Assembly (NCBI GenBank): GCA_020056965.1
Contig: JAGVGT010000083.1
Location: forward strand, 2,286 to 66,285
Direction: 5' to 3'
Origin: Deltaproteobacteria bacterium
Lineage (GTDB): Bacteria; Desulfobacterota; Desulfobulbia; Desulfobulbales; JAGXFP01
DNA length: 64,000 bases
The notes beneath the pieces are model-generated. The model saw only the letters and a program-made list of their open reading frames with translations, ran no database searches and was not told the DNA's origin. Positions 2,067-43,869 of this stretch are shown here, piece after piece. Position 1 is the first letter of the stretch, and each line of letters starts with the position of its first letter. Both the position numbers and the translations under genes were made by a program.

Positions 2067-2115
2067 GACTTATAGGTCTCATGGTCCCTATGAGTCCCAT
2101 AGCTCCTGTAAGTCA
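2062..2115. repeat. Six degenerate 9-bp tandem units forming an imperfect hairpin between convergent genes
   Basis: TATAGGACT TATAGGTCT CATGGTCCC TATGAGTCC CATAGCTCC TGTAAGTCA. Confidence 0.6.
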
Positions 2116-2125
2116 GCCGAGCCGA

Positions 2126-2797: not shown

Positions 2798-3143
2798 AGC
2801 TGTCGGTTTCCCGCACCTCTACACTGTAAGGGGCGTAGTGCGGGCCGCGCAGGGATTCCTTCAGGTTGTTGAAGATATAGACGGCGATGTTCTCCGAGGA
2901 GGGGTTGGCGGCCAGAAAGGCCGGGTGTTCGTTGAGGTCGCGGTGATCGAGGGTTTCCAGCGCTTCCTTGACGGCGTTTTTCGCCACCCGGAAGTCCACG
3001 GCCATGCCCAGTTCATCCAGTTGACTGGCCCGCACCGTCACCACAATCTTCCAGTTGTGGCCGTGCGGTCTTTCGCAGTTGCCCGGATAATTGCGGAGAT
3101 GGTGGCCGGCCGAGAAATGGCTTTCCACAAAGATGTCGAACAT
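2760..3143 (-). CDS. queD: 6-carboxytetrahydropterin synthase
   Basis: FSAGHHL, CERPHGHN, LDHRDLNE, NPSSENIA. Confidence 0.95.
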   Translation of the reverse strand: MFDIFVESHFSAGHHLRNYPGNCERPHGHNWKIVVTVRASQLDELGMAVDFRVAKNAVKEALETLDHRDLNEHPAFLAANPSSENIAVYIFNNLKESLRGPHYAPYSVEVRETDSCGVVYREDPAGA

Positions 3144-25522: not shown

Positions 25523-28500
25523 ATGGTCATGAGAGCAGCGACAGGCATTAGGGCGACGTGCGTTTTCTTGTTGTTTGGGGGTGTTCTGCTCATCGGCCCG
25601 GGACGGGCGCTGGCCATCAATACCGTGAGCGACTATCAGAAGAGTCCGGCCTTCGTCACCTCGCCGGTCCAGCCCTTAACCATGCTGATGCTGGATAACA
25701 GCGGAAGTATGGGTTTCGATGCCTACTCCGGCACCTACGATGCCACCAGGAATTACTACGGACTTTTTGAGACGAGAACGACGTCAGCGAGCGCTGCGGA
25801 CATCTACTATTACCACCCCTTCAACATTGCCGGCAGCGGCGATGTCTGCAACTATGACGGCATCAGCGGTTCGTGCAACAAACCGGACCTCACGGCCACC
25901 GGCGAGTGCACCTACCCGGAGCGAACCTGCACTACCGGCGCGGTCGGCGACTACGTCTGCTTCCAGGCCGGGAGTGATTCCGGTACATATACCTCTGATA
26001 ATTGTAATGATGATTGTTCTGGTAATACCAACTGTTCAGAGTATCAATATACCTGTCAAAGTGGCTATGTGACTTCTGGAAGTAAATATGACAAGAAATG
26101 TAGCGATGTTAGTTGTTCCAGCGGCTACTCCTGTACCGAAGCGTATTACTGCAGCGGCAACACCAGTGTTATCTATGCCGAGGATGCTTGCGATGCAGAT
26201 GGTAGCGGTACCTCCGACTGCTCTGGGGGGGCGAGTAACTGCAAACCATTCACCTATAGCAGCGGGAGTAAGAACTCTAAAACATGCGTGAAGTACTCTC
26301 TGAGTGGGACCTACGACAACAACACCTGTGACAGCCAGTGTTCGAGTTCGGCATGTCAGGCGAAGAATTATACCTGTAAAGGACTAGATCGTTCCACCGG
26401 CATAACCTACAGTAACTCTACCTGTGACGGCAGTGACGGCAACACCACCACCGATTGCTCAAGCGGCTACTCCTGCGTGAATGCCTCCAAGTGCGTCAAA
26501 CAGGGGAGCACAACCAGGTATTATGGTAGCTCGAGTTGTGAAGATTACTACGACACCGATGACGATAAAACAAGATCCTGTTCCGGTACCTGTTCGTCAA
26601 CCGGTGGCGGCGGCAGCGTGGTTACCTGGACCGGCCAAGCCTGTGCGTCCTGTACAGCCTTGGGCGGCGTCTGCAACAACACCGGGTCCTTATATGCCAT
26701 TCCCAACTATAACTGTGTGGCCGATAGCACGGTGTGCGACAGTTTTAAGCTGGCCGACTCGGTGTGTACTCCCACCGGGGGTACCGTCACGACCTGCGAT
26801 TGGGTCGACTTGGAGCAGAAGGCTACCTGTCAGGCCATCTGCGGCGGCATCCTGGTTGATGTCCCCACGGGGCCTCAGCAGGCCGGTTGCACAACCGCCA
26901 CCGAGAAGAGCGATTGTGTTACCAAGTATGGCAGCGTCTGCGAGACCGGGATCACCTATACCACCGCTCGGGCCTCATATTGGCGTAAAACCCCGGCCGA
27001 CGGCACGAATCCTCTCGGTTGGAATTGCAACACCGGCGACTGTCTCGGGGCCGGCGCCAATGTCACCCTCGGCAACCAGCTTAATTTTGACCAGATGACC
27101 CAGATGGACGTGGCCAAGAAGGTCCTGATCGGCGGCAAGCGGACCACGGTTTCGTCCATCCCCGGAACCGTCGAGCTGGACGGCGATTTCAACCAGACCT
27201 CCAACAAGTACATCTGTTCCACCAATGGGCTGATTTACAACTCGCGGAGTGATTGCCGAGATGCCAGTGGTTGCGATAGTTCCACCTGTACCCCCTTCTC
27301 GGAAGGCGGCAACAACGGGAATATTGTCCTGCAGCCGGGCGAGGATCCCAAGGGCATCCTGCAGAACAACGAGGGGCTGGCCTGGGGCTTCGGTGTGTTC
27401 AACTCCCCCGACGGCGGTATCATCAAGAATTACATCGGCAGCCCCAATGCCGATATCGTCAAATCGATCAATGATACCCCCTCCAGCGGAGCAACCCCCG
27501 TGGCCGAGTCCCTCAACACGGTGGTCAACTATTTCCGGCAGGTGACGCCGTACTACAAAAACCCCGGGGAATACACTGTCGATACCCCATCCAGCGGGAC
27601 CGGCCTCTGGGATCCTTTCGTCGCCGATGACGGCTCCAAGTCATTTGCCCCCTGCGGTCGGGCCTCGACCATCCTCATTACCGACGGTGAGCCGAATCAG
27701 GACGATAAGTTCGATGCCACTATCAAAAACTACGCCAATAATAACAGCAGCGGCATAACCGATTTCATCTCCCCAACCTCCGGGACCAATACTTACTTCG
27801 TGGACGATGTCGCTTACTGGGCCCATAAAAACGATCTGCGGACCGAGGCCCAGATGGGTGGCCCCCAGACCTTGGACACCTACATGATTTACGCCTTCGG
27901 CAATGACCCCGCCAGTAAGTTGAAATTGCAGAACGCGGCGGTGCTGGGCGCCTTCATCGACAAGAACGGCGACGGCAAGCCCAACAGCAAGGCCGTGGAG
28001 AAGCTTGCCGCCGCCGATGCCAGGGAGTGGGATTTTTACGTGGACCCCGCCACCCCCGGAGACGATATCCCCGACAACTATGCCGAAGCCAACGACGGTG
28101 AGCTGCTGGCCAGCAAGCTGCAGAACATGCTCGGGCAGATTCAGCAGAAGGTTTCGGCCGGTTCGGCCGCCTCGGTCATCTCGGCCAGCCGTAGCGGCGA
28201 GGGCGCCATCTACCAGGCGATCTTCTACCCCAAGACCCCGCCCGACGACGCCTACCGGAAGATCACCTGGGTGGGGGATGTCCATGCCCTCTGGCTGGAC
28301 GACTACGGCAACATGCGGGAGGACTGCGACGCCGACGATACCGGCGACGCCTGCGTCGCCAGCGATGCGACCTTGAACGTCAAGACCGACAAAATCATCG
28401 AATTTTATTCCGACACCACCACCGGCGAGGCCATGATCCGGACCTTCCGCGACCTCAACGGGGACAGTAAGTATATCTCGGGGGTATGCAGCGTGGCCCT

Positions 28501-30847
28501 CGTCAAGAACGGGGCCAATGTTGCGGCAAATGCCACCAGCTACGAGGTCCGGGAGTTTGACTGCACCAGCAAGGGTGGAATCTGGAATTCCCTTGCCAGT
28601 CCTGATTATATCGCCACCGGTACCATGAAGGATTTTTCCCATTATCTGTGGAGCGGCGGGCGCTGGCTGGCCAATGCTGACGCCGCCACCCAGAGGGTTT
28701 ACACCACAGCCGCCAAGCAGCGCCACATCCTGACCATGGAGAAAATCTCCGCTGGTTTTTATGACGATATGTATCCTTTCACTACCACTTCGATCCAAAG
28801 TTTTTACAGCGCTACGGGCTACAAGAATATCTTTAATGCCGCCAGCCAGGCGGAGGCCGACAATATCGTCAACTATATTCGCGGGGTCGACATTGCCGGC
28901 TACCGCTCCCGCCTATACGACTGGGGCTGGGGAGACGGGGCCCAGGTCAACAAGCTGGGCGATATCGTCGGTTCGACGCCGACCATCGTCGCCAAGCCGG
29001 CCGAGGACTATGATGTTGTGTATGCCGACAAGTCGTATCAGCGGTTCCGCCAGGCCTACGAAAGCCGCCGGGTCATGGTTTATGCCGGCGGCAATGACGG
29101 CGGTCTGCATGCCTTCAATGGCGGTTATTACCAGCGGTCAAATAAAAAGTTCCTTAATGGTCCGCCCGGGAAAGTTCAATATGATCTGGGCAGCGAAATG
29201 TGGATGTTCGTCCCCCGGAATATCCTGCCGCACCTGAAATGGCTGACCGATCCCAATTACAGCCATATCTACTACCTGGACATGAAGCCCTATGTCTTCG
29301 ACGCCAAGATCTTTGACCCGGACGCCACTCATCCCGATGGCTGGGGGACAGTGCTGGTCGGCGGCATGGGCTTCGGCGGCGGCGATTTCACCGTCGATAC
29401 CGACGGCGACGGAGTCAAGGAAACCACCTTGCGTTCCACCTATTTCATTCTCGATGTCACCAACCCGGAACGTCCGCCGGTGTTGTTGAAGGAGTTTAAC
29501 GATGCCCAGTTGGGATTCACTCTGGGCGCCCCCAACGCCGTCCCCATGCTGCGTTGCGATCGCCGTGTACACGGGAGTTGCCCGGACAATAGCAGTGCCG
29601 CCGCCACCTGGCCCATGGATTGGTACCTGGCTTTCGGTTCTGGCCCCCATAACGACAGCGTCACCAATCCCGCCGGGATCCAGAATGCCATGCTGGGCAA
29701 GAGCGATCAGGAGGCCAAGCTTTACATGCTCAATCTGGGCGGCACCGGCGCCCCGGCCTTGGCCCGCGCGGCCGGCCCGTCATTGTCCTGGGTGCCGCCG
29801 TACACGACGCCAGGTTATCCCAAGACCATCTCGGCCGCCACCTTCCCCAAGTCGTTCTTCTCCGACCTGATTGCGGTGGACTACGATTTGAACTTTAAAA
29901 CCGATGTGATGTATTTTGGTTCCATCGCCGACACCCAATCGAGCCCGATCGTCTACAAAGGTGGTATGCATCGGCTGGTAACCGCTGAATCGCTTACCCC
30001 GTCAACGTGGACGCTCAACACCATGTTCAACGCCGGTCGACCAGTCAGCGCCTCCGCCACGGCCTCGTGGGACGGCAGCCGGGCCTGGGTTTACTTTGGT
30101 ACGGGGCGATTGTTGAACGCCTTCGAGGACAAAGCCGATACCAGCCAGCAGTCCTATTACGGCCTGACGGAGAACCATGTTTATGATGGGGTCAGCAAAA
30201 AATACAAGATGGATCTTAGCCTGCCCAACGGCGGGAACCTGGTTAACGTTTCCAACGTCTGGGTGAATACCAGTCGCGTGGACAGCGTTACCGGCCTAAC
30301 TGTTCTGGGCTCACTGTATGACACCGTGACCAATAATCCGGCGGTGCTGACGACCACCGCGGGACTTTATAGCCCGCTGGCCGCCAAGACCTTCAAGGAG
30401 CTGGACCTGGAGATTGGGGAAACGGATGGTGTTAACGGACCCTATAAGTACAACGGCTGGAAGATCAATTTCCCCCGGACCAAGGAACGGAACCTGGGGC
30501 AGGCCGCCCTCCTGGGTAGTATTTTGACCTTTACCACCTATATGCCGTCATCCGATATCTGTACCGCCGAGGGTGAGAGCATTATCTGGGCGCCCTATTA
30601 CCGGACGGGCACGGCTTACTTCAAGCCGGTGCTTGGCATGGCTGACCGGGGCGGCAAGTTGGAGGCCGTCCGAGAAACCACGCCGGTCAAGGGTATGACG
30701 CTGACCCCCAGCCTCCATTCCGGCGCCGAGAGCGGCACCAAGGCCCTGATCCAGACCAGTACCGGTGCCATCATTAGTGTTGATCAAGAGGCCCCCGGCA
30801 CGGTAAAGAGCGGCGTGATTTCCTGGCGTGATAAGGCTGCGGAATGA
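25523..30847 (+). CDS. pilY1: PilY1/PilC tip adhesin (vWA domain with Cys-rich insertion + PilC beta-propeller), 1774 aa
   Basis: Signal peptide; MIDAS LDNSGSM; TPVAESL; LITDGEP; KLGDIVGSTP; YAGGNDGGLHAF; YFGTGR. Confidence 0.9.
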   Translation: MVMRAATGIRATCVFLLFGGVLLIGPGRALAINTVSDYQKSPAFVTSPVQPLTMLMLDNSGSMGFDAYSGTYDATRNYYGLFETRTTSASAADIYYYHPFNIAGSGDVCNYDGISGSCNKPDLTATGECTYPERTCTTGAVGDYVCFQAGSDSGTYTSDNCNDDCSGNTNCSEYQYTCQSGYVTSGSKYDKKCSDVSCSSGYSCTEAYYCSGNTSVIYAEDACDADGSGTSDCSGGASNCKPFTYSSGSKNSKTCVKYSLSGTYDNNTCDSQCSSSACQAKNYTCKGLDRSTGITYSNSTCDGSDGNTTTDCSSGYSCVNASKCVKQGSTTRYYGSSSCEDYYDTDDDKTRSCSGTCSSTGGGGSVVTWTGQACASCTALGGVCNNTGSLYAIPNYNCVADSTVCDSFKLADSVCTPTGGTVTTCDWVDLEQKATCQAICGGILVDVPTGPQQAGCTTATEKSDCVTKYGSVCETGITYTTARASYWRKTPADGTNPLGWNCNTGDCLGAGANVTLGNQLNFDQMTQMDVAKKVLIGGKRTTVSSIPGTVELDGDFNQTSNKYICSTNGLIYNSRSDCRDASGCDSSTCTPFSEGGNNGNIVLQPGEDPKGILQNNEGLAWGFGVFNSPDGGIIKNYIGSPNADIVKSINDTPSSGATPVAESLNTVVNYFRQVTPYYKNPGEYTVDTPSSGTGLWDPFVADDGSKSFAPCGRASTILITDGEPNQDDKFDATIKNYANNNSSGITDFISPTSGTNTYFVDDVAYWAHKNDLRTEAQMGGPQTLDTYMIYAFGNDPASKLKLQNAAVLGAFIDKNGDGKPNSKAVEKLAAADAREWDFYVDPATPGDDIPDNYAEANDGELLASKLQNMLGQIQQKVSAGSAASVISASRSGEGAIYQAIFYPKTPPDDAYRKITWVGDVHALWLDDYGNMREDCDADDTGDACVASDATLNVKTDKIIEFYSDTTTGEAMIRTFRDLNGDSKYISGVCSVALVKNGANVAANATSYEVREFDCTSKGGIWNSLASPDYIATGTMKDFSHYLWSGGRWLANADAATQRVYTTAAKQRHILTMEKISAGFYDDMYPFTTTSIQSFYSATGYKNIFNAASQAEADNIVNYIRGVDIAGYRSRLYDWGWGDGAQVNKLGDIVGSTPTIVAKPAEDYDVVYADKSYQRFRQAYESRRVMVYAGGNDGGLHAFNGGYYQRSNKKFLNGPPGKVQYDLGSEMWMFVPRNILPHLKWLTDPNYSHIYYLDMKPYVFDAKIFDPDATHPDGWGTVLVGGMGFGGGDFTVDTDGDGVKETTLRSTYFILDVTNPERPPVLLKEFNDAQLGFTLGAPNAVPMLRCDRRVHGSCPDNSSAAATWPMDWYLAFGSGPHNDSVTNPAGIQNAMLGKSDQEAKLYMLNLGGTGAPALARAAGPSLSWVPPYTTPGYPKTISAATFPKSFFSDLIAVDYDLNFKTDVMYFGSIADTQSSPIVYKGGMHRLVTAESLTPSTWTLNTMFNAGRPVSASATASWDGSRAWVYFGTGRLLNAFEDKADTSQQSYYGLTENHVYDGVSKKYKMDLSLPNGGNLVNVSNVWVNTSRVDSVTGLTVLGSLYDTVTNNPAVLTTTAGLYSPLAAKTFKELDLEIGETDGVNGPYKYNGWKINFPRTKERNLGQAALLGSILTFTTYMPSSDICTAEGESIIWAPYYRTGTAYFKPVLGMADRGGKLEAVRETTPVKGMTLTPSLHSGAESGTKALIQTSTGAIISVDQEAPGTVKSGVISWRDKAAE

Positions 30848-33939: not shown

Positions 33940-34293
33940 GGGGGCGAAACGGCTTCGACGGGGATATATAAGCTTGGGCTGCATACCGAGCTCTGGTTGC
34001 TCGTTAATCCATCAGACATTAAACATAATCGCTGACGATTATGCCTACGCTGTAGCAGCTTAATGCTACCGTTCCGGTTGACCTCTCCCGTGGGGTCTTC
34101 TAGGGGCGTCGCGCACACGGGATAGCCTGCCGGCTGCACCTGCCGGCCGAATGGCGAATCCAACAGCAGGATAGTGTCGAAGCCCCGGTCCCGGGCAAGC
34201 TTCGACACGATAAGCAATTTAACGGGACTAAGTATGTAGAAGCCTACAGGGGAGTATTTTCGGACCCGGGTTCAACTCCCGGCGCCTCCACCA
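33940..34293 (+). ncRNA. ssrA: tmRNA; tag reading frame ADDYAYAVAA* at 34031-34063
   Basis: 5' GGGGGCGAAACGGCTTCGACGGG; 3' GACCCGGGTTCAACTCCCGGCGCCTCCACCA; tag ending in AA; downstream of smpB. Confidence 0.98.
34268..34293 (+). repeat. attL core (26-bp direct repeat)
   Basis: GGGTTCAACTCCCGGCGCCTCCACCA, identical to 43426-43451. Confidence 0.95.
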
Positions 34294-34299
34294 GTATTT

Positions 34300-34343
34300 A
34301 GCCAATGATTTCAGGTAGTTATCTGGGGTCATTGGCTTTTTTT
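34300..34343 (+). terminator. Phage-supplied terminator directly after ssrA
   Basis: AGCCAATGA...TCATTGGCT followed by TTTTTT. Confidence 0.75.
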
Positions 34344-35489
34344 ATGTATCACAGCCGTATCACAACCACCGGTCTGTGTGAGGTTATAAACATTCTTCAT
34401 TTCCGCACCCTCGATCCGGAAGTATCTTTCAAAGGCTTTGTTCGTTCCGTGCATGGTCGCCCGGCGGATCTGCTCGGGGGAGATCAAGTCACGAAGTGCC
34501 AGGGCGGACGAATGCCGAGTCCCGCCATAAAGATCAACGCCCTCGATCCCCAGATTGTCACAAGCTTTCTTCCACCACTTATATAGGTATTTGCCGCCGA
34601 ACCGTTGGCCTTCCCTGCAGCCGCTGACATTGGCGATATGGCGGAAGAAAAATAGTTCAGGAAATCCTCGAGGCAAATCACAAATCAACTCGATGTCGCT
34701 GTCAATGATGGGAACAACCTTCGGTTTTTTCTCCTTAGGGTGGGGAATGAAAAAATAGCCGGACTTGATATCAATGAACCTCTCTTTCAATCCAAGCATT
34801 TCGGCCGGCCGAATCGAAATATAAGTCGAAAGCCATTTAATGCCGATCCAAATTTTAGGATTCAGGTGGTAGGAAATCCTTTTCACTTCATCCAGGATGG
34901 CCATCTGTGTTTCCTTGGATATGGTCTGACGCCAACCAAGTTCAAAGGATATCTCGGGAAACTCTGGGAATTGGGCCTGATTAATGACTCGGCGTTTTCT
35001 GAGCCAGACCCAGAAGGTATGAAGGCAGGATCTTATATTAGAACGGGTTTTATCGGAAACGTCCTGGGAGAAAAGGAAATCTTCAAGTTCAGCATAGCCG
35101 ATTGTTTTGATATTCCGGCTGCCCCAAGCTTTAACGGCTCGAGCCATATAGTTGGAAAGGTTGTCATAAGAACCAGGTTTGACTTCCTGCTTCTTAAGAA
35201 GAAGCCATTGGATGGAAAGAGTTTTAAAAGCTAATGGTTGTGCGGCTTGGTAATCTCGATGGTCAAAAGTTCCCTTATCGACTTCATAGCGCAAGCCGTC
35301 GAGAAACCTCTCGGCCTGGATGTAGTTATTGAAACGCTGCCGCACCAGGCGGCCAAACTGAACGGTAAATAATTTAGTTGCCTGCTGATCCGGGTGGTTC
35401 GGACAGAACAAGCCACGGCTGCGGCCGTCATAATGAAACTTAGAGCCACAAGCTGGACAGAACTGATCAGAAAAAATACTACCGCGCAT
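34329..35489 (-). CDS. Tyrosine recombinase/integrase with N-terminal Zn-ribbon-like motif
   Basis: IRPAEML, LYGGTRHS, MHGTNKAFERY; CPAC...CPNH; adjacent to att. The ORF extends to 35537. Confidence 0.88.
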   Translation of the reverse strand: MRGSIFSDQFCPACGSKFHYDGRSRGLFCPNHPDQQATKLFTVQFGRLVRQRFNNYIQAERFLDGLRYEVDKGTFDHRDYQAAQPLAFKTLSIQWLLLKKQEVKPGSYDNLSNYMARAVKAWGSRNIKTIGYAELEDFLFSQDVSDKTRSNIRSCLHTFWVWLRKRRVINQAQFPEFPEISFELGWRQTISKETQMAILDEVKRISYHLNPKIWIGIKWLSTYISIRPAEMLGLKERFIDIKSGYFFIPHPKEKKPKVVPIIDSDIELICDLPRGFPELFFFRHIANVSGCREGQRFGGKYLYKWWKKACDNLGIEGVDLYGGTRHSSALALRDLISPEQIRRATMHGTNKAFERYFRIEGAEMKNVYNLTQTGGCDTAVIHKKSQ

Positions 35490-35541
35490 ACAGAGTACCC
35501 CCTGCATCGAGATAGCTTTTTTAAGCAACAAAGTCAAATTT

Positions 35542-35883
35542 TCAACCTGGGAACAAATTCAGTTGCCGGGGATCTATCGGTTGAGAGCGATGCCGAATAC
35601 CAAGCAGTAGATCCAGGGGTTCTTTGTGGTTCTTTCCCTGGAGCCGGTTAAGAATCCGGGCACATTGAATAACTTGAGCGCCGCGCTTAAGCTGTTTTAA
35701 CTTAATAAGGACTTCACGACCATCATCGATGCCTACAAATGTGAAACCGGCTATTGTATATCTCCGAGAACCAAATTTTTTTAATTCCCTTAATGCTTCT
35801 TCGCGCATTCCTTTTCGAATAAATTCAAGAGCATTCTGTCTATGATCAATATCATCGTTAAACATAATCACCCCATAGCCCAT
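35542..35883 (-). CDS. Phage hypothetical basic protein ending QLNLFPG (start may be 35871 or 35865)
   Basis: Fills the gap between rep and int on the same strand. Confidence 0.65.
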   Translation of the reverse strand: MGYGVIMFNDDIDHRQNALEFIRKGMREEALRELKKFGSRRYTIAGFTFVGIDDGREVLIKLKQLKRGAQVIQCARILNRLQGKNHKEPLDLLLGIRHRSQPIDPRQLNLFPG

Positions 35884-37160
35884 TCAGCTTGAATGAAGGA
35901 CGGCTGAAAACCCATAGGCCAGATATTGGCAAAGCGGAGCTTCATCTTATGATCAAAGAGGTTCTTTCCAGCGATCGTCTTTTCTTTGTGCAGCCGTCTA
36001 AAGCCTTCCTCGATAAAAGCTTGTGATTGAGCAATGACGTTTTCAATGGTTGGTGTCACACCACGGATTGTTTGGGCCGACATAAGGCAGCCCAGGGACA
36101 TATCGAGCAGAGTATTGATATTCCGAGACGGTTGAATCTTGATCCTGGATAGCTCGACCAGGGGTGTTTTGAAATCTGCTTTCTGAACTTCACGCCACCA
36201 GGGATGCAGGGCGGCTCGATCCTGGTGGCGGTTTTTTCGGTCCACCGGCTCCAGGGCAAAACGTGTCCATTCTTGAGTACAATATTTCCAGACTCCGGAA
36301 CGTTTCTTCTTGAGGTCTGAGAGCGTATTCACGTGCAGCTGCCGGAGAACGTCACGGCGTAACTGGTATTCGACCCGGGTAACTGGCTTTTCGTCATATT
36401 CATCCTGTTGCCAGACCGAGGCAAACACAGATTGCTTGGTTGCACTTCGCTTGAGCTCGAGAGACTTGTCGTAGATCCGCAGCATGATATCGCCGGTACC
36501 GAAAGAAATTCCCGTTTCCCGAAGCACGATGGAATCCTTATCCCCTGGCGGCAGTTCGCCCATTGTCTGAGCTATGGTGATGCCGGAAAGCCTGGTTCTG
36601 TCCTGATAACAATGGAACCGATTGGCCCTGGTCACCCAATGTTCGGAGCGATCAATGGGAAGTTCCTCGATGTCCAGGCCGACGAAGTCAGAACAAAGAT
36701 GGACTTCTGAAACCACATCTTTGACGATATGGCCGCCCAAGGTGGCCACCAACCGCTTTACTTCCTTGATGATGTTGTTGTAGCCGGGTGACCAGCAGGA
36801 TTGAGAGCCAATATCTACCCAGATATTAGGAGTGGTATTATCCTTTCGGGTGCTGAAGAAGATGTTCACATCAGAGCGGGAAATGTGATAGGCGTAACCG
36901 CCTTTGCGGCCGGTCGGGTGGCAGTTAAAGACCAGGTCGCCATGTTCGGTAAAAGAGATGGTCACGGGTTCGTTGATTTCCTTGGCTCGTTCCTTGGCAT
37001 CAGCCAGGGTTAATAAAATTTCGGGCCTTTCCCATGCCACGTACAAACCATATTTAAGGCGATCATAGCCCGTGGCGAGTTGTGACCCCCATGTTATTCG
37101 CCTTGGGGGAACAGCCAAAGACCGGGCAACTTTTCCAAGTGATGATTTCAAGCTTCCCAT
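35868..37160 (-). CDS. Rolling-circle replication initiation protein (Rep_trans-like)
   Basis: VSEVHLCSDF, MLRIYDKSLE, VTRVEYQLRR, HPWW; AGGAGG RBS. Confidence 0.8.
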   Translation of the reverse strand: MGSLKSSLGKVARSLAVPPRRITWGSQLATGYDRLKYGLYVAWERPEILLTLADAKERAKEINEPVTISFTEHGDLVFNCHPTGRKGGYAYHISRSDVNIFFSTRKDNTTPNIWVDIGSQSCWSPGYNNIIKEVKRLVATLGGHIVKDVVSEVHLCSDFVGLDIEELPIDRSEHWVTRANRFHCYQDRTRLSGITIAQTMGELPPGDKDSIVLRETGISFGTGDIMLRIYDKSLELKRSATKQSVFASVWQQDEYDEKPVTRVEYQLRRDVLRQLHVNTLSDLKKKRSGVWKYCTQEWTRFALEPVDRKNRHQDRAALHPWWREVQKADFKTPLVELSRIKIQPSRNINTLLDMSLGCLMSAQTIRGVTPTIENVIAQSQAFIEEGFRRLHKEKTIAGKNLFDHKMKLRFANIWPMGFQPSFIQAEWAMG

Positions 37161-37339
37161 GAGCTAGGCCTCCTGTTGAATTAAGAAAAGTGCGCCGTGA
37201 TCGTGGCGGACTGGTCCGGGTAACTGGATACAAGACGCGGTTCCGAGTAATGGGCCTTCGGCCTGTTCCTGGAAGAGAAAAAACCAGGGCAGGGCCGGCG
37301 GGGCTGAAGCAAGGCTATAAATTCAGTCCCATGAAGCTG

Positions 37340-38434
37340 TTATGATGCCTTCTCTGAAGGAAGGTCGGTCTCTGGAATATCTGCGTATAGACGACCGTCG
37401 GTGCCGGTGATCGGATATGGAAACGTATCCTTGGTGAAGACTTGGCCACGGAAAACGAACAGGTATAAGATTTTTCCTTCCCGGGTATATTCAGCGTAAT
37501 TGAGTTTGACTCGATGGATTATAGGAGGAATGGCAACGAGCTCAGGGCTGTTTAAAGAAGATTGAGCCGCGGGGATCCCCGCAGCCGATTGTGAGCTCGA
37601 GACAACGGAAGCTCCCTGGTCATGACCAGGGGAAGAAGGGGGAGTTGATGCTTTAGCTTCGGAGGCATCAATCACGGAAAGGGCTTTCTGTTGGATCTTC
37701 TTAGTTCCGAAAATATCGCCGGTTGCCAGGCTGGACTTGAAAAAGATCATGTAGACCGTGAAGCCCAGGACAATCGGAATTGCCAAAAAGACCGGATGCC
37801 GCAAGACGTTGATTGTCGGCATGATCGATTGTTCTTTAATGTCTTTAGCTGCGTAGCTCTGATAACAACTGAAAATTTTCGATTTATAGCGGCGGCTGGC
37901 ACGTTTGAGAGGTTGGCCGGCAGTATCTTCGCCAGCGTAGATATTGCAGAGGTAGCCCTTTTGAACCAGGGAACCAAAAAAGTTGATTTTCCGAAAACAG
38001 TAATTCCACTCAGTCAAAGACCGGACGGCCGAGTCGATCCGTTCGGCGTTCTGGGTGATGATGACAAGGTCATAGCCTTCATGTCGGTGGGTGGAGGCCC
38101 AATCACCGAAAAGCCGATTTTTTGTGGCTTGCCAATCACGATTGCTGAAGTACTTCTGGACCTCATCAAGGACGATCAGGGAATTACGTTCCGGGCAATG
38201 ATCCCAAAAGTTTTCAATTACTTCACGACTATTGCCCAGATGATGAAACTGATTACCAAACTGAAGATCATCCAGGCCGGCCAGGACCTTGAGCGTCTCC
38301 TGACAATGAGGATCATCCATGCCATCAATATTAGTGTAAACACATTTTCCAAGGCGCAGGTTGTTAAGGATCTTCTCTACTGCTTCGTAGGTTTTGCCGC
38401 TGCCCGGGGTGCCGGTGAAAAAGAAAATGGTCAT
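37340..38434 (-). CDS. Zot-like morphogenesis ATPase (pI)
   Basis: GTPGSGKTYEAV, YTNIDG, IVLDEVQ, HRHEGYDLVIITQ, one TM segment. Confidence 0.93.
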   Translation of the reverse strand: MTIFFFTGTPGSGKTYEAVEKILNNLRLGKCVYTNIDGMDDPHCQETLKVLAGLDDLQFGNQFHHLGNSREVIENFWDHCPERNSLIVLDEVQKYFSNRDWQATKNRLFGDWASTHRHEGYDLVIITQNAERIDSAVRSLTEWNYCFRKINFFGSLVQKGYLCNIYAGEDTAGQPLKRASRRYKSKIFSCYQSYAAKDIKEQSIMPTINVLRHPVFLAIPIVLGFTVYMIFFKSSLATGDIFGTKKIQQKALSVIDASEAKASTPPSSPGHDQGASVVSSSQSAAGIPAAQSSLNSPELVAIPPIIHRVKLNYAEYTREGKILYLFVFRGQVFTKDTFPYPITGTDGRLYADIPETDLPSEKAS

Positions 38435-38438
38435 GATG

Positions 38439-38765
38439 TTACACCCTGGTCACGGCAGCGGGGATCAAGTTCAATAGAAGTCGAACAATCATGGCGCCAG
38501 CGATCAAAGAAGCACACTGAGGCAAGGCCAACTGGTTGACCAAATAGATGGCTTGTGGCGGCAGGTTAGTCCATTGGGCATATTGAGTGAAGACCAGGGC
38601 GGACAAGTCCAAGGATGTAACAAAAAGAGTGACAACCGTCAGGAGACCGTCAAGGATCATGTAAACAAAAGTAGAAATTACAGAGAAAAACCCCATAAGG
38701 CCGAGCTTGATAAAGCCCCATAGGGAGGAGAAAAAAGATCCGACGAAGGCAAGAAAGGTGTCCAT
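38439..38765 (-). CDS. DUF2523 family minor coat protein (pVI-like)
   Basis: Hydrophobic 108 aa ending IAGAMIVRLLLNLIP; immediately upstream of zot. Confidence 0.85.
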   Translation of the reverse strand: MDTFLAFVGSFFSSLWGFIKLGLMGFFSVISTFVYMILDGLLTVVTLFVTSLDLSALVFTQYAQWTNLPPQAIYLVNQLALPQCASLIAGAMIVRLLLNLIPAAVTRV

Positions 38766-38769
38766 TATC

Positions 38770-40431
38770 TCACCGATGTGAAAGAAGGATTCGTAAGGCC
38801 GCGAACGAGAAACAGACCAAGAAAATCGTTCGGCAGATGGAAAAAAGAGAATTGTAATTGCTCAGGTCAATATCAACGGTGCCATACTGACCCATTTCAA
38901 CGGTATAAACAGGTTCACCACCAGAGGGAATGTTGCCTAAGACTTGATCAGGTAGGGAAAAAAGCGGAGTGTGCCGCATATCATCGATAAATTTATTAAA
39001 GCGGTCAGTATACAGCGCCTTTTCTTCATCAGACGGAGTGTAAATAAAATCAGAACCATGCTGACAGGTACCATGCCCAGTTTTACAGTCAAAAGAGACA
39101 AAAACATCACCTGTTTCAGAACAGTATGATTGTTTCCAATTGTTTTCAGCATCAACACAAGCATTTGACAAATCACAGACACCAGTGTCAGCAACACAAT
39201 TATAGGAAACAAAAACCTCTCCTTCTGCCGAACAAAACTTTGCTTTCCAAGCCTCTTCTTTAGCAACGCAGCCATTAGGGTCGTCGCAATGGCCTGTATC
39301 TGTTACACAATCATAGTCTAATAGCTCTAAATTCAAAGCAGTACAATGAGACGCTTTCCAGGCATTTTCTTTTGATGTACAGTCGTTTTCGTCACGACAT
39401 ATACCGTCTTTAGTATCACAATCAAAAGAAATCAGTGTTTGACCAGGCTCAGAACAATTAACTTCTTTCCATAACTGACGATCATTATCACAAAGATCAT
39501 TGCCGCAGATACCAGCATCGGCAGCACAGTCATAACTGAGCAGCACTTTCCCCACAGGCTTGCAATAAAGGTTTTCATAGTTTTGTTTTTCGATCAGACA
39601 ATCACCACAAACGCCAGCACCAGCAGACCCATGCGCTTCACAATTGTACGAGGTTGTAGACATACCGGGACCATTGCAATAGCCTAACTCCCATTCCTTT
39701 TGAGCTTTAACGCAATCGGTACAAGTACCGGTGTTAGCGGCACAATCATAACCAGTAACTTCAATTCCAGGGCCAGGAGGACAATTAGCATCGCCCCAAG
39801 CTATTTCAGCGGCGGCACAGTCAGAAATGCATTCACATACATTATCGAGGGTAGTAGGATGACCTTGCGGATCAGTAGAGGTTACATCACAAGCTTGCTG
39901 CAAAGTTTCACCTGAGGGACAAGGACCAACACAAGAAGCCGAGATATCATCACAAGTTTTACAATAACCTTGGCATAATGCCGCATCCCAATAGGCAACG
40001 TTTTCGGCACCGCCACAGCTAGTTTGGAGAGCAGGATACAGAGCAGGATCACAGGGAGGATTTGGCCCACACTGTGGCAATTGGGCAAAACCATGATCAG
40101 CCTGGCTAGCACCAATGGTGGTGAAATCATTATCGACAACACCACTAACGTTACGATACGCAACGGTCGATGGACTACCCTGCACCCAACCGGCAGCCTC
40201 AGTGCATTCCCAAGAGTAATACTGACTGTTAACAACTGGAAGGCCCTGCCCATCACCAACAACAACCGCATCGCTACAACTAAAAGTTGCAGTCACCCAG
40301 GTACCATTACCGCCAGTAGATGAACCACTTAAAATTGCAAAAGAATAATGATAACAACCGTATTCAACATAGGCAAAAGATACAGAAGGAGCTAAAAAAA
40401 TACTAATAAATAGTGCCGCGAATAATTTCAT
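38770..40431 (-). CDS. pIII-like attachment protein with seven 4-Cys repeats
   Basis: Signal peptide (VSFA-Y), C-terminal membrane anchor RTIFLVCFSFAALRILL, position upstream of pVI. Confidence 0.82.
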   Translation of the reverse strand: MKLFAALFISIFLAPSVSFAYVEYGCYHYSFAILSGSSTGGNGTWVTATFSCSDAVVVGDGQGLPVVNSQYYSWECTEAAGWVQGSPSTVAYRNVSGVVDNDFTTIGASQADHGFAQLPQCGPNPPCDPALYPALQTSCGGAENVAYWDAALCQGYCKTCDDISASCVGPCPSGETLQQACDVTSTDPQGHPTTLDNVCECISDCAAAEIAWGDANCPPGPGIEVTGYDCAANTGTCTDCVKAQKEWELGYCNGPGMSTTSYNCEAHGSAGAGVCGDCLIEKQNYENLYCKPVGKVLLSYDCAADAGICGNDLCDNDRQLWKEVNCSEPGQTLISFDCDTKDGICRDENDCTSKENAWKASHCTALNLELLDYDCVTDTGHCDDPNGCVAKEEAWKAKFCSAEGEVFVSYNCVADTGVCDLSNACVDAENNWKQSYCSETGDVFVSFDCKTGHGTCQHGSDFIYTPSDEEKALYTDRFNKFIDDMRHTPLFSLPDQVLGNIPSGGEPVYTVEMGQYGTVDIDLSNYNSLFSICRTIFLVCFSFAALRILLSHR

Positions 40432-40733
40432 CTAACAACAACCTCATTAATAAGAGATGAATTAGGCACATATTGAGAAACAACAGGAAAATATGGATAA
40501 ACACCAATAAGTATTTCGCTGACAGTATTAGATCTGGAGCATAGAAAATAAAGCTGTTTTGAACGAAACGAATATCGGAGTGAATAGTTAAGAGAACAAG
40601 AAGAAGGATATTCAATAGTCAAAGGGGTAGTTGCAAGGCACCATTTAGCAAATCCGATTATCCAAAACAGAATAAAAAAACCAAGAATGAGAGCAACCAG
40701 GCGGATTTTGAAGAAAGAAGGTAACTGGAACAT
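40428..40733 (-). CDS. Phage hypothetical membrane/secreted protein, 101 aa
   Basis: N-terminal hydrophobic helix; ATGA overlap with the pIII start. Confidence 0.65.
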   Translation of the reverse strand: MFQLPSFFKIRLVALILGFFILFWIIGFAKWCLATTPLTIEYPSSCSLNYSLRYSFRSKQLYFLCSRSNTVSEILIGVYPYFPVVSQYVPNSSLINEVVVR

Positions 40734-40744
40734 GGCTTTGATTC

Positions 40745-40879
40745 CTAAAGTCGGTTGCTAAGCTTCTTGATCAGCGCATATGCCAGAAACAGCAGCGCGA
40801 TAGATACGAAGGGCAGGGCGATCTGGATAACGTCAGAAGCAAACTGTGCTGCATCAAAATTAGGAGGCAGGGTAACCAT
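40745..40879 (-). CDS. Coat-like protein, 44 aa (not in ORF track)
   Basis: MVTLPPNFDAAQFASDVIQIALPFVSIALLFLAYALIKKLSNRL; TGATG coupling; single TM plus basic tail. Confidence 0.75.
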   Translation of the reverse strand: MVTLPPNFDAAQFASDVIQIALPFVSIALLFLAYALIKKLSNRL

Positions 40880-40974
40880 CAAAAATTCCTACCAGATACG
40901 GCGATAACAAAAGCTATTGCCGTAAGCGTTCCGGCAAAGAAACTAACGATCTGGGAGAGGTCAGCAGCGGTCAT
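40879..40974 (-). CDS. Small minor coat-like protein, 31 aa (pVII/pIX-like)
   Basis: MTAADLSQIVSFFAGTLTAIAFVIAVSGRNF; ATGA coupling to the upstream ORF. Confidence 0.7.
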   Translation of the reverse strand: MTAADLSQIVSFFAGTLTAIAFVIAVSGRNF

Positions 40975-41081
40975 ACAAGTACGCGACCAATCTTGAAAAC
41001 GTAACCGATGGCCATGCCCGCGACCCAGCCGGACAAGACAAGTCCCATTCCCCAGGAAAACGGTTCCACGCCAAATTCCAT
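40971..41081 (-). CDS. Small minor coat-like protein, 36 aa (pVII/pIX-like; not in ORF track)
   Basis: MEFGVEPFSWGMGLVLSGWVAGMAIGYVFKIGRVLV; GAGG RBS. Confidence 0.7.
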   Translation of the reverse strand: MEFGVEPFSWGMGLVLSGWVAGMAIGYVFKIGRVLV

Positions 41082-41090
41082 AACTGTGCC

Positions 41091-41291
41091 TCAAAGGTCC
41101 TGGTCATTATTTTTAAAAAGCCCGTTGCCGCCCTTCGGGCCGGAACCGATACCAATATTAAAAACGTTCATAAGAACGGAAACGCCGATGATTATGAGTA
41201 AAACGGAGATGGCACCAACAACGAAGGTTCTGACATCTGTGGTAATGCCATCCATGCCAACGCCGAAAAGCTGAAAGAGAGAGTCGATCAT
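41091..41291 (-). CDS. Coat-like single-TM protein, 66 aa
   Basis: DGITTDVRTFVVGAISVLLIIIGVSVL; similar to 41558-41698. Confidence 0.7.
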   Translation of the reverse strand: MIDSLFQLFGVGMDGITTDVRTFVVGAISVLLIIIGVSVLMNVFNIGIGSGPKGGNGLFKNNDQDL

Positions 41292-41310
41292 TTACGTTCA
41301 CTTAAGGTTG

Positions 41311-41342
41311 TTCCCCGGGAGTCAAATCGACCTCCCGGGAAA
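41311..41342 (-). other. Hairpin downstream of the putative major coat gene (terminator or RNA stabiliser)
   Basis: TTCCCCGGGAGTC-AAATC-GACCTCCCGGGAA. Confidence 0.55.
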
Positions 41343-41353
41343 CGGGGAAGGGT

Positions 41354-41488
41354 TCACACCTTGTTGCCGACCTTCTTGATGAAGCGGTAGCCGACGAACA
41401 GAAGCAGGATGCCAACGCCGGCCAGCAATGCCGTGGAGATATTGCCGGAAAGAGTTGAAATGTCGAAAGCGGTGAACAGTGCAGCCAT
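41354..41488 (-). CDS. Probable major coat protein (pVIII-like, leaderless, 44 aa; not in ORF track)
   Basis: MAALFTAFDISTLSGNISTALLAGVGILLLFVGYRFIKKVGNKV; strongest RBS in the module (TAAGGAGG); hairpin follows. Confidence 0.8.
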   Translation of the reverse strand: MAALFTAFDISTLSGNISTALLAGVGILLLFVGYRFIKKVGNKV

Positions 41489-41557
41489 TTGATTTTGCCT
41501 CCTTAAATGATTGATATGGTTGGGTTTGCCTTCTGGCCAAGAAGCTCTGGAATTATA

Positions 41558-41698
41558 TTAGCGGTTCATGATCGTCCGGATGATCAGGCCGGCGCCCAGG
41601 ATGATCAGGCAGATAGTCAAAATGCCGGAACTGGCCGAAAGTACATCGGCCTTGATGCCATCAAACCAGGTGATGTCAATCAGTGGGGTCCAGGTCAT
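41558..41698 (-). CDS. Coat-like single-TM protein, 46 aa
   Basis: MTWTPLIDITWFDGIKADVLSASSGILTICLIILGAGLIIRTIMNR; GGAG RBS. Confidence 0.72.
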   Translation of the reverse strand: MTWTPLIDITWFDGIKADVLSASSGILTICLIILGAGLIIRTIMNR

Positions 41699-41731
41699 GA
41701 GCCGAAATCTCCGTTTGGTTGGGGAGTGGAG

Positions 41732-41787
41732 CCGGTAAGGGGCGGGCCGGCACCCGCTAACGCGGGAAACCGTCCGCCCCTCACCGG
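41732..41787. other. Long GC-rich hairpin between ssb and the coat genes
   Basis: CCGGT-A-AGGGGCGG...CCCGC-TAAC-GCGGG...CCGCCCCT-C-ACCGG. Confidence 0.65.
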
Positions 41788-41793
41788 GGGGGA

Positions 41794-42099
41794 TCAGTCG
41801 TTTACCCAAAGGTCAGGGGTATGGTTGACCTTGCCGGCATTGTTTTTCCAGTAACGAGAAGAGACGGTGGCCTTGATATCGATCATTTCTTCAGGGCGGC
41901 CGAGCTTTCGCTTTGATTTGACCTGAATCTTGGTCGGGCTTTTCATCGGGTCGCCGGACGGAATAATGATCAAGGTCATGTAGGTAATGCCGTTTTCACC
42001 GTCATGTTGATCGATCTTGTCAATCTTGCCGTGAATCCGGACGGTGAGCATGGAGTTGTTGGGGGGGGATGCTGCTTGGTCTTTTGCGGGGTCTGCCAT
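41794..42099 (-). CDS. Single-stranded DNA-binding protein (pV-like)
   Basis: 101 aa, beta-rich; IHGKI...TLIIIPSGDPMKSPTKIQVKSKRKLG resembles inovirus SSBs; first gene of the structural operon. Confidence 0.7.
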   Translation of the reverse strand: MADPAKDQAASPPNNSMLTVRIHGKIDKIDQHDGENGITYMTLIIIPSGDPMKSPTKIQVKSKRKLGRPEEMIDIKATVSSRYWKNNAGKVNHTPDLWVND

Positions 42100-42202
42100 G
42101 ATGGGTTCCTCTTCGGGTTGTGATTTGGCCAGTTTTCGTGTCGTTGACTATTTACGGCCGCTTCGGTAGTGTGAAAGGTTAGGATGAGATAACAAACAAA
42201 CT

Positions 42203-42245
42203 ATAACTACAGTTATATATATTGGTTTTATATAGCTGTAGTTAT
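42203..42245. promoter_or_regulatory. Twin palindromic operator candidates in the divergent ssb/repressor promoter region
   Basis: ATAACT-AC-AGTTAT and ATAGCT-GT-AGTTAT, together a 17-bp inverted repeat with one mismatch. Confidence 0.7.
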
Positions 42246-42279
42246 CTTGCGTCAAGAAAAAAATTACTGGCGTAATAAA

Positions 42280-42687
42280 ATGAGCTTCGAAGAGATTTGG
42301 GACAGAATAAGAAAAGAGACGAAACTCAAAAAAATAACTGAGTTAGCAGAGCTTGCGGAAACGTCACAACCGAACGTTTCCAAAAAAAAGAAAGAAAATA
42401 ATTTCCCTGTAGATTGGGCTTATAAGATTGCAAAAAAATACGAGCTCAACATCGAATGGATTTTGGAAGGAACCGGGCCGCAACGTCCAGGGCAAGGCAG
42501 CGATGATCCAGAGATCATCAAGCAGATAGTAAAATGGATTAAGGAGCAGGAAAGGAAAGAGCCAGGGGCGCTGGCTTGGTTCACATACGACTTCAGGAAA
42601 AAATATCCAGAGTTCGACAGGTGGGAAAAAAGAGAGGAAGATAGTTCCGCTGATCATAATGCGGGAATCAAGAGCAATACAGCCTAA
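42280..42687 (+). CDS. Phage CI-like HTH repressor
   Basis: ELAELAETSQPNVSKKKKENNFPVDW...LNIEWILEGTGP; divergent from the structural genes. Confidence 0.85.
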   Translation: MSFEEIWDRIRKETKLKKITELAELAETSQPNVSKKKKENNFPVDWAYKIAKKYELNIEWILEGTGPQRPGQGSDDPEIIKQIVKWIKEQERKEPGALAWFTYDFRKKYPEFDRWEKREEDSSADHNAGIKSNTA

Positions 42688-42714
42688 ATAACCTAACTGT
42701 AAATAGATTATACC

Positions 42715-43296
42715 ATGGAAGAAACCATAACCATGCTGGGAGGTGTGTTTGCGTTACTAATTTCGGCCGCAATCATTCTTTCGGTTTTTTGGATATGGAT
42801 GCTAATTGAATGCATCCATAATAAAGATATAAAAGGAGCAGAAAAAGCCTTTTTCTTATTGCTTATCACGTTTTTGCACTGGATAGGCGGAGCTATTTAT
42901 TGCTTTAGCGTCAATAGAAAAGAAAAACTTGGATGTTTTGCGCTTATTTCGATGATATCAGCTGCAACAATAATTCTCTTTGTGGTGATCGGACTAATAT
43001 ATTCAACACCAGCAATACAGAAAGGTAATATCAACAAAACATCAATCCCTATAAGTCCTACTAAGCAATGAAATAAAACAAATCTTCCAGTTGGAAGAGC
43101 CACAGGAACCAAAACACAAACAGTAAATAAAACACCAAAAGACAGATATGTAGTGCTAAACAAAAGCGACGAAAATAGAAACCCCGCCAAAACACCAAAA
43201 GAAATAGCCAATATCAATACAGCAAAATACAGTGAACCACTAAAATCATGGATAGACAGAGAAGGAAAGGTTCATTTCTCAAATGGTGGTCTGTAG
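42715..43296 (+). pseudogene. Accessory membrane protein (PLDc_N-like TM helices + DUF4124-like tail) interrupted by in-frame TGA at 43069-43071
   Basis: FWIWMLIECI...IGGAIY; the frame stays open after the TGA to KSWIDREGKVHFSNGGL*. Confidence 0.65.
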
Positions 43297-43425
43297 TTAG
43301 CAGTAAAATGATTTTCAACCAAACGAACCAGCGGCCAAGCCGCTAATCTTAGTGTTGCGTGTCACAGCCGTGTAACAGGCGAAAAATAACTAATTGTAAT
43401 TACGTTTGTTTTTATAGTGGGACTT

Positions 43426-43451
43426 GGGTTCAACTCCCGGCGCCTCCACCA
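43426..43451 (+). repeat. attR core (duplicated tmRNA 3' end)
   Basis: Identical to 34268-34293. Confidence 0.95.
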
Positions 43452-43483: not shown

Positions 43484-43519
43484 AAAAAGCCCGCTTCCTG
43501 CAAAGGAAACGGGCTTTTT
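43484..43519 (+). terminator. Intrinsic terminator after attR
   Basis: AAAAAGCCCG-CTTCCTGCAAAGGAAA-CGGGCTTTTT. Confidence 0.75.
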
Positions 43520-43699
43520 GCTGTCCGGCAGAGTCCGAGGGGTTTGTTTTTTTCCGGGTAGGGAAAGTGTAGGAAACGAGTAGATTTGTTGCTGGTTCGA
43601 GTTTTACCCGTTATCCAACTGGAAAGGTGTCAGGCTATGCCAAAACAAGGGGCTTTGCGCGAATGGCGCTAGCATAAGGGTTATGGGGCTGAGAACATC

Positions 43700-43756
43700 A
43701 TCGTTCCCACGCTCCAGCGTCCAGGTCTGCGTTCCCACGGAGACCGTGGGAGCGAT
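43700..43756. repeat. REP-like element (TCGTTCCCACGCTC type), internally deleted
   Basis: ATCGTTCCCACGCTCCAGCGT...GCGTTCCCACGGAGACCGTGGGAGCGAT. Confidence 0.65.
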
Positions 43757-43869
43757 AGAAAACCTTTAAACTACTGCCATTCTAATGCATCCCCGGAACT
43801 GATGGGCGGATTGACCGGGCGTCATAGTTGTTGATCCTCCCTGGCGGCTGGTGTCGTGAGGTGACTCAT

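Follow-up and report, generated by a model that had tools for sequence, protein, structure and literature searches.

The 64,000-nucleotide stretch of DNA analysed here (the window; contig JAGVGT010000083.1, positions 2,286 to 66,285, of the Deltaproteobacteria assembly GCA_020056965.1) very probably contains an integrated and apparently complete filamentous phage (inovirus) of Pf-like architecture, with a unit length of 9,158 bp, inserted at the 3′ end of the host gene for transfer-messenger RNA (tmRNA, ssrA). Elements of this kind, the site at which they integrate and their reliance on a host secretin are already known, and the group to which the phage belongs has already been predicted. ARAGORN found a single tmRNA gene in the window, at 33940–34293 on the + strand with the tag ADDYAYAVAA, and this gene matched Rfam RF00023 uncut over model positions 1–374 of 374 (180.6 bits; gathering score 47). 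A direct repeat of 39 nt (34255–34293 and 43413–43451, 87% identity) occurs at a spacing of 9158, and the last 26 nt of its two copies, 34268–34293 and 43426–43451, are exactly alike and constitute the att cores. The tmRNA gene stays whole because the phage brings a 26-nt copy of its 3′ end.

The borders were established by comparison with four related genomes in which the site is empty (G002, G016, G025 and G028; loci L087–L090). In these relatives the tmRNA 3′ end directly joins the homologue of the DNA to the right of 43451, terminator-like hairpin included, which identifies the 9.16 kb as an insertion and fixes both of its borders exactly. Thus, the exact 26-bp att repeats in the tmRNA 3′ end claimed in a preliminary description of this DNA were borne out by the repeat search, ARAGORN, Rfam and the four empty sites. 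The element also differs from its surroundings in guanine-plus-cytosine (GC) content, which is 0.39–0.54 in 500-nt windows between 34500 and 43499 and 0.59–0.64 beyond the element; the value for the prophage as a whole is 0.463, compared with 0.590 for the 3.08-Mb genome. This genome is a metagenome-assembled genome (MAG) of 96 contigs that is 89.9% complete, and the prophage DNA is single-copy in it.

The gene set was derived from open reading frames (ORFs), and family matches were obtained from Pfam and PHROG searches. All genes of the element are on the − strand save three, the repressor gene, orf118 and orf47, which are on the + strand. Several of the small genes were set by comparison with related loci L092 and L093; these two are the same DNA as L007 and L006, respectively, and were not counted as extra cases. 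The features are listed below in order of position.

34268–34293, no strand: attL core, 26 nt, identical to attR.
34300–34337, +: terminator-like hairpin, a 17-pair stem followed by a T run, supplied by the phage and just past the rebuilt tmRNA end.
34329–35537, −: tyrosine integrase, 402 aa (phrog_1, 1.1e-13).
34346–34364, no strand: GTATCACAGCCGTATCACA, a repeat of probable arm type, located towards int from the core.
35542–35883, −: orf113, 113 aa, between rep and int; no family match.
35868–37160, −: rolling-circle replication initiator (Rep), 430 aa, with a predicted Rep_trans fold.
37283–37299, −: terminator-like hairpin after pI.
37340–38434, −: pI, Zot-family assembly ATPase, 364 aa (PF05707, phrog_197).
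38439–38765, −: pVI-type minor coat protein, 108 aa (phrog_974, 8.9e-9; also phrog_306).
38770–40431, −: pIII-type tip/adsorption protein, 553 aa, with a conserved C-domain.
40428–40733, −: orf101, relic of the 5′ end that pIII once had, comprising the old leader and about 55 codons.
40745–40882, −: p45, small membrane protein of coat-like type, with counterparts in L092 and L093.
40879–40974, −: p31, small hydrophobic protein resembling pVII/pIX; it corresponds to the C-terminal, conserved portion of a 71-aa frame.
40971–41081, −: p36, small membrane protein in an overlapping frame, with homologous ORFs in L092 and L093.
41091–41291, −: p66, small membrane protein, found in 6 of 74 loci.
41354–41488, −: p44, the likeliest of the small proteins to be the major coat protein; its core is hydrophobic and its C-terminus basic.
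41558–41698, −: p46, small coat-like protein; the conserved part, from Met38, of an 83-aa frame.
41794–42099, −: single-stranded DNA-binding protein (SSB), 101 aa (phrog_8473, 6.8e-10).
42202–42216 and 42231–42245, no strand: two 15-nt palindromes, candidate operators, just upstream of the repressor gene.
42247–42687, +: CI-type repressor, 146 aa (PF07022, 2.5e-7, 31.4 bits, cut-off 22; phrog_4), divergent from the structural operon.
42715–43071, +: orf118, membrane protein (PLDc_N, 19.5 bits, under the cut-off of 23.3), with a homologue in L098.
43153–43296, +: orf47, with a homologue in L098.
43359–43377, no strand: GTGTCACAGCCGTGTAACA, a repeat of probable arm type, located towards the repressor gene from the core.
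43426–43451, no strand: attR core, 26 nt, the original tmRNA 3′ end, displaced by the element.
About 43484–43520: the host's own terminator-like hairpin, after attR.

The order of these ORFs matches the order given for Pf phages in the available text of PMC7549136, and the preliminary description had therein been correct. It had also proposed a full gene set with unbroken core genes. Every listed gene is an open frame, and pI, rep and int are full length relative to their nearest relatives; the part of the proposal that did not stand concerns orf101, which is the leftover of an exchanged pIII 5′ end and not a clean gene. A scan for promoters gave 10 sites, compared with a mean of 12.6 in shuffled sequences, and we claim no promoter because there were fewer sites than in the shuffles. 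For orf113, no match was found in Pfam, PHROG, NCBIfam or PADLOC, and the best atlas score was 0.77, with none reaching 0.9.

Identification of the element as an inovirus is carried by pI and the genes around it. The pI protein matched the Zot family PF05707 with 104.1 bits (cut-off 20.3; 8.5e-30) and phrog_197 with 1.1e-46, its Walker A motif and D90-E91 pair are invariant in the family alignment, and 98–100% of its length is covered by relatives P0002–P0005. Among deposited phages, pI matched 185 records at 23–28% identity, all filamentous by name; a DNA search against the same type of record found no match. Between ssb and pIII, the interval 40745–41698 encodes six conserved membrane proteins of 31–66 aa (in order of transcription p46, p44, p66, p36, p31 and p45), and several of their stop and start codons overlap. 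The p46 protein corresponds to a 46-aa ORF in L093 with 74% identity. No secretin was found with the PF00263 profile in the element or elsewhere on the contig of the window.

We found 275 database relatives of pI, the named ones being from Desulfobulbus, Desulfofustis, Desulfolithobacter and Geobacter. An alignment-based pI scan identified 37 loci in genomes that represent species and a further 37 in IMG/VR; a single-protein query against IMG/VR gave no match. Many of the resulting 74 loci are themselves cut short. A gene in the same order as in the window was present for pVI in 59 of them, the pIII C-domain in 51, p46 in 36, rep and p45 in 33 each, p44 in 30, ssb in 21, cI in 20 and a window-type integrase in 13. 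Of the 33 genome loci scanned, 20 have a tRNA (17) or tmRNA (3) gene downstream of pI, compared with none of the nine viral loci scanned; the att structure itself was inspected for the window, L045, L059 and L098. Related prophages sited at tmRNA are L006, L007, L011 and L098.

In a quick maximum-likelihood tree of pI, the window grouped with L006 and L007, both at tmRNA, and with L008, which adjoins a tRNA-Glu gene in a member of the Desulfurivibrionaceae (Shimodaira–Hasegawa-like approximate likelihood ratio test, SH-aLRT, 96). This clade of four rows lies within a clade of 49 rows (SH-aLRT 95) that consists of Thermodesulfobacteriota prophages and IMG/VR contigs, and tmRNA users occur in at least three subclades of the tree. 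The nearest named genome locus is L006, with 60% pI identity. Some of the IMG/VR contigs have a pI identical to that of prophages in cultured strains (for example, L053 equals L015). Loci of cultured strains include L015/L053 (Desulfofustis glycolicus DSM 9705), L021/L057 (Desulfopila aestuarii DSM 18488) and L019 (Desulfobulbus rhabdoformis DSM 8777), and overall predicted relatives are found in at least 30 genomes of Desulfobulbales and Geobacterales, cultured strains among them. Two statements of the preliminary description bear on these results. The grouping of pI with inoviruses, which it had named as a check, was found both in the phage records (185 of 185 filamentous) and in the tree clade of related prophages, and its remark that predicted phages of this host group may exist is confirmed by the 37 IMG/VR and 37 genome loci obtained with pI. 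A figure legend in Roux et al. 2019 names Deltaproteobacteria among inovirus host clades (PMC6813254, available text). Our literature search, which did not extend to the host tables in the supplement of Roux et al. 2019, where members of this family may already be listed, found no paper on inoviruses of Desulfobulbales and no paper on filamentous phages of cable bacteria.

Comparison with L098, a relative from a metagenome, revealed that different parts of the element have different relatives. L098 shares int (89% identity over 402 of 402 aa), orf113 (65% over 78 aa), rep (81%), ssb (66%), cI (52%), orf118 (35%) and orf47 (59%). In pI, by contrast, identity falls to just 23%, and the L098 genes for the coat, pIII and pVI do not match. 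The morphogenesis block is instead common to L006, L007 and L008. The genome is a mosaic of L098-type int-orf113-rep and ssb-cI-orf118-orf47 segments with an L006-type morphogenesis block, in which the front of pIII has been swapped again.

The pIII protein consists of its own signal peptide, an N-domain, about seven Cys-rich repeats (residues ~204–458) and a C-domain with a membrane anchor. In 141 of the best 150 of 236 HMMER matches, similarity to pIII starts only at residue 417 and mostly covers the last 80–90 residues, which correspond to the C-terminus of proteins of about 450 aa. This C-terminus is the conserved anchor domain. The closest full-length relatives of pIII (P0242–P0244) start with an orf101-type leader and realign with pIII from about residue 127, and the first 39–56 residues of orf101 are 61–77% identical to the N-termini of P0242 and P0244. 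Conversely, the first ~126 residues of pIII, with its own signal peptide, resemble a different type of protein (P0249, P0251). Since L093 has one fused pIII of 435 aa, and L092 has a 35-aa leader relic followed by a pIII with the new front, orf101 is the relic of an exchange of the pIII front end. In an AlphaFold (AF2) model of pIII, the Cys-rich repeats form a helix plus a hairpin with a per-residue confidence (pLDDT) of 72–90, and the N-domain has a pLDDT below 50. The model had no Foldseek match at E ≤ 0.001, and in a VIA-align wide search matches were confined to the helical C-terminal 90 residues and were generic (Z ≤ 6.1).

The leader and repeats recur outside the prophage, in a host Rhs protein of 1,779 aa encoded at C81:52695–58034 (L080:2696–8035, − strand). 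This protein contains DUF6531 and RHS_repeat (PF05593, 4.4e-127, in 13 stretches), and its front end consists of an orf101-type leader and about 11 Cys-rich repeats homologous to those of pIII. Residues 204–456 of pIII are 40% identical to the Rhs repeats over 253 aa (E 9e-51), and the orf101 leader is 69% identical to the Rhs leader over 32 aa; the stretch between leader and repeats had no detectable similarity between pIII and Rhs. Long proteins (978–3,114 aa) with this front end are rare: only three were found among 5.8 billion, all of them Rhs. Among 201 sampled genomes of the order, this front end was detected in the host genome only, and G106 gave a leader-only match. We also considered a recent exchange between the prophage and the host Rhs gene, which is not supported because the 40% identity is no higher than that between Rhs and pIII from other samples, indicating that the sharing is old. 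It is conceivable, if on balance doubtful, that the adsorption module of the phage and a toxin delivery module are one exchangeable unit, with a leader and repeat array homologous to the front of Sec-type Rhs toxins of the same host lineage. If true, the kin-cell surface structure that these phages use would also be the target of the Rhs toxin, or the place where it is displayed, and phage tip genes would be a source of polymorphic-toxin targeting domains, or the reverse. Our literature search found no paper linking Rhs with filamentous phage pIII, and this common module is the sole part of the analysis that might surprise a specialist.

We propose the following cycle. The CI-type repressor would silence the divergent structural operon via the two palindromes. 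After induction, Int would recombine attL with attR, the Rep_trans-fold protein would nick the resulting circle for rolling-circle replication, and the 101-aa SSB would coat the single strand. As the inner-membrane ATPase, pI would then thread the DNA into a coat of p44, p45 and p46, with p31 and p36 at one end of the virion and pVI and pIII at the other. Because the phage is without a secretin, the filament is expected to exit via one of the four host secretins described below. Entry would depend on the exchangeable N-terminal part of pIII engaging a receptor.

Several observations weigh against reading the element as a complete phage. One is that Rep gave just 12.8 bits with Pfam Rep_trans PF02486 (E 0.093; gathering score 29.6). 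At E ≤ 0.01 this profile matched 2 of 32 Rep homologues, and a sequence-profile search of Rep against the PDB returned one irrelevant match (E 0.17). An AF2 model of Rep based on the 32 homologues (pLDDT 79; predicted template-modelling score 0.72) had six Foldseek matches at E ≤ 0.001, all of which are Rep_trans rolling-circle initiators (4cij, 4cwc and 4cwe). Across these solved initiators E ranged from 7e-11 to 1.6e-7 with a probability of 1.00, and the match to 4cij had an E of 7.1e-11 and a TM score (target) of 0.58. On the strength of the model, Rep is predicted to be a rolling-circle initiator of the Rep_trans fold. It would share this fold with RepSTK1 (4cij) and RepDE (4cwc/4cwe); unlike them it has an extra C-terminal helical region, giving 430 aa compared with about 270, and identity to them is 12–13%. 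Y230, a candidate for the catalytic tyrosine, is invariant in the 32 homologues. Relatives P0122–P0126 cover Rep fully (100%), and its 202 homologues include proteins of Desulfobulbus propionicus and of the cable bacteria Electrothrix and Electronema.

Similarly, the integrase scored 14 bits with PF00589, under the cut-off of 27.1, and the His of its HxxR box is replaced by Gly338, here and in at least 90% of 11 aligned family members. In the same alignment there is no variation at R243, K273 or Y372; the Arg at position 341 of the integrase is shared by 9 of the 11 sequences, the other 2 having K. This integrase family targets the tmRNA 3′ end. A 19-nt pattern has just two matches in the window, where none is expected, each about 50 nt from a core, and L098 has both repeats at the same places; integrase probably binds them as arm-type sites. 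The N-terminus of the integrase, which precedes the recombinase domains, has a Cys cluster (C16, C27, C30 and C45, all invariant, with H48 in at least 90% of members) that looks zinc-ribbon-like. The host also encodes a XerC/XerD-type recombinase at 54223–55182 (−), with a PF00589 match of 1.2e-46 and a SAM-like domain. The phage does not need it, since its own integrase is present.

The remaining points against a complete phage concern regulation, replication and the coat. No HTH_17 or Xis-like match to an excisionase was obtained for the ORFs searched against Pfam and PHROGs, and between cI and ssb there is no ORF except a 35-aa frame. No origin or packaging hairpin was found in the pI-rep spacer, the folding of which was no better than that of shuffled sequences (z −0.41). 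For the major coat protein there is only a candidate, p44, whose match to phrog_6548 'major coat protein' is weak (E 0.018) and is the sole coat-family match among the small proteins. Finally, BLASTN of the MAG contigs found one integrated copy, no circular form and no empty-site contig. For CRISPR spacers, which the preliminary description had suggested as a further check, the outcome was negative: a simple scan for repeats detected no array among the 96 contigs of the MAG, and none of the BLASTN matches between prophage and genome was spacer-like.

These points raise the alternative of a cryptic, fixed prophage that is complete on paper and no longer excises or makes particles, for example because it has no excisionase or because pIII was rearranged. 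The lack of an Xis-like gene and the orf101 relic adjoining pIII would fit such an element, as would the partly degenerate attR of L098, of which 21 nt are kept. Decay does occur at this site, since in G001, a genome of the same genus, all that is left after the tmRNA gene is an int remnant of 36 aa and a second att-like copy (L091; G001:C5:1352000–1371000). There, the conserved oxidoreductase gene lies 15.6 kb from the tmRNA gene, a distance that points to other islands, or decayed ones, at this hot spot. In the window, however, attR equals attL over 26 of 26 nt although it lies outside the tmRNA gene, and at least 13 conserved genes are all open and full length. L092 has the same arrangement of relic and new pIII, so the pIII swap is older than this copy. 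In addition, int (dN/dS, the ratio of nonsynonymous to synonymous substitution rates, of 0.05 against L098) and rep (0.06–0.09 against L098 or L097) appear to be under strong purifying selection, although a dS of 1.3–2.1 in these comparisons is saturated, which makes the ratios rough and is itself a point on the other side. A junction in a relative also bears on excision. L055, an IMG/VR contig of 11,661 bp, runs from rep and int through a core directly into regulatory and structural genes without a tmRNA gene; within it, at 1760–3100, int is followed by the tmRNA-like core, which has two mismatches and paired GGGACAC repeats on both sides, and then by the regulatory genes. This arrangement reads as an attP-type junction from a circular or tandem form. 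From these comparisons, activity of the phage is likely, and we consider the cryptic alternative unlikely.

A non-viral integrative island or plasmid remnant with a Zot-type ATPase is very improbable. Zot families matched 4 of 14 control genomes (3 above the cut-off), including three archaea and Thermotoga, so that a Zot match alone is weak evidence. The element, however, has the whole inovirus module in canonical order (SSB, six small membrane proteins, pIII C-domain, pVI, pI and rolling-circle initiator) within 9.2 kb, and its relatives are catalogued as viral contigs. An assembly chimera, in which a phage contig was misjoined to a host contig, might be suspected from the 96-contig, 89.9% complete MAG and the sharp GC drop, but can practically be dismissed since the element meets the host DNA on either side in the att structures expected for tmRNA, four relatives have the DNA of the right flank as their native tmRNA-downstream DNA, G001 also has smpB-tmRNA and the downstream oxidoreductase gene on one contig, and related prophages occur at tmRNA in L006, L007, L011 and L098.

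The placement of the host in a Desulfobacterota group, as made in the preliminary description, was upheld by MutS, which falls in a 90%-identity cluster (match ≥90%) named Desulfurivibrionaceae bacterium, order Desulfobulbales. A sulfur-cycling host is plausible; the window holds a sulfur-transport gene and a pyridine nucleotide-disulfide oxidoreductase. Also as described earlier, there is no phage secretin gene on the contig of the window, and the host genome has four secretins (PF00263), two on C31 and one each on C35 and C5. Two are of the GspD type above the curated cut-off, one is MshL-like and just below it, one is without type, and none reaches the PilQ cut-off, PilQ and GspD being the exits that the preliminary description had proposed.

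The smpB gene lies directly 5′ of the tmRNA gene. Upstream of smpB are prepilin-type genes (GspH-like, PilW and GspK-like) and a TfpB/PilB-like ATPase gene, which make up a type IV filament locus. The prophage therefore does lie beside a type IV pilus locus, as had been noted, with minor-pilin and PilB/TfpB-like ATPase genes directly upstream; this nearness follows from the position of the tmRNA gene itself and is therefore no evidence for a receptor role. Between the minor-pilin genes and the ATPase gene is an ORF of 1,774 aa (25523–30847, +) without a Pfam or NCBIfam match, whose position fits a pilus tip or adhesin protein. On the other side of the prophage, about 210 nt to the right of attR, a short interspersed repeat occupies 43660–43782; further copies with 75–93% identity are present on at least eight other contigs of the genome (C5, C23, C24, C32, C43, C64, C91 and C92).

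The element adds a well-delimited, complete reference copy to a large phage family of Desulfobulbales and their relatives. Members of this family come from cable-bacteria genomes and from several cultured strains, which makes it feasible to attempt induction and to look for particles in relatives. For sulfur-cycle bacteria living in biofilms and sediments, phages of a chronic, non-lytic kind could be of consequence, as Pf is for Pseudomonas. The new details are orf101 as a relic of the pIII front end, and the recurrence of the pIII repeats and the old leader in a host Rhs protein.

Among known systems, CTXphi is a secretin-less phage that leaves its host through EpsD. The element resembles CTXphi in having no pIV gene and a host that encodes GspD-type secretins, and differs in using its own integrase rather than XerCD at dif. 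Secretin-less filamentous phages exit via a host secretin according to the available text of PMC7549136 and bioRxiv 10.1101/2024.03.19.585677, and we infer by analogy that the phage in the window would do the same. Its likeness to predicted inoviruses of Desulfobulbales and Geobacterales, of the type of data set described in the available text of PMC6813254, lies in the shared pI clade and the ssb-to-rep synteny; unlike those, it combines an L098-type int/rep with an L006-type morphogenesis block and a Cys-repeat pIII, an array that is rare in relatives.

Pf phages that integrate at tmRNA have been published, with their gene order and use of tmRNA given in PMC7549136, and the comparison with these Pf-tmRNA prophages of Pseudomonas aeruginosa (Pf4-type) rests on the available text of that paper. 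The order of repressor, ssb, coat, pIII, pVI, pI/Zot, initiator and integrase is the same, the tmRNA 3′ end serves as the site in both, with a core of 28 bp in Pf and 26 here, and a secretin gene is absent from both. The exchange of structural modules independently of integration modules likewise recalls the two Pf lineages described there. In contrast, the host belongs to another phylum, pI is only about 24% identical to that of a Pseudomonas filamentous phage (H15, the best Pseudomonas hit, 24.3%), and an XisF-type excisionase next to the repressor was not found here in the Pfam and PHROG searches. Also unlike Pf, the element encodes six small membrane proteins and a pIII with Cys-rich repeats.

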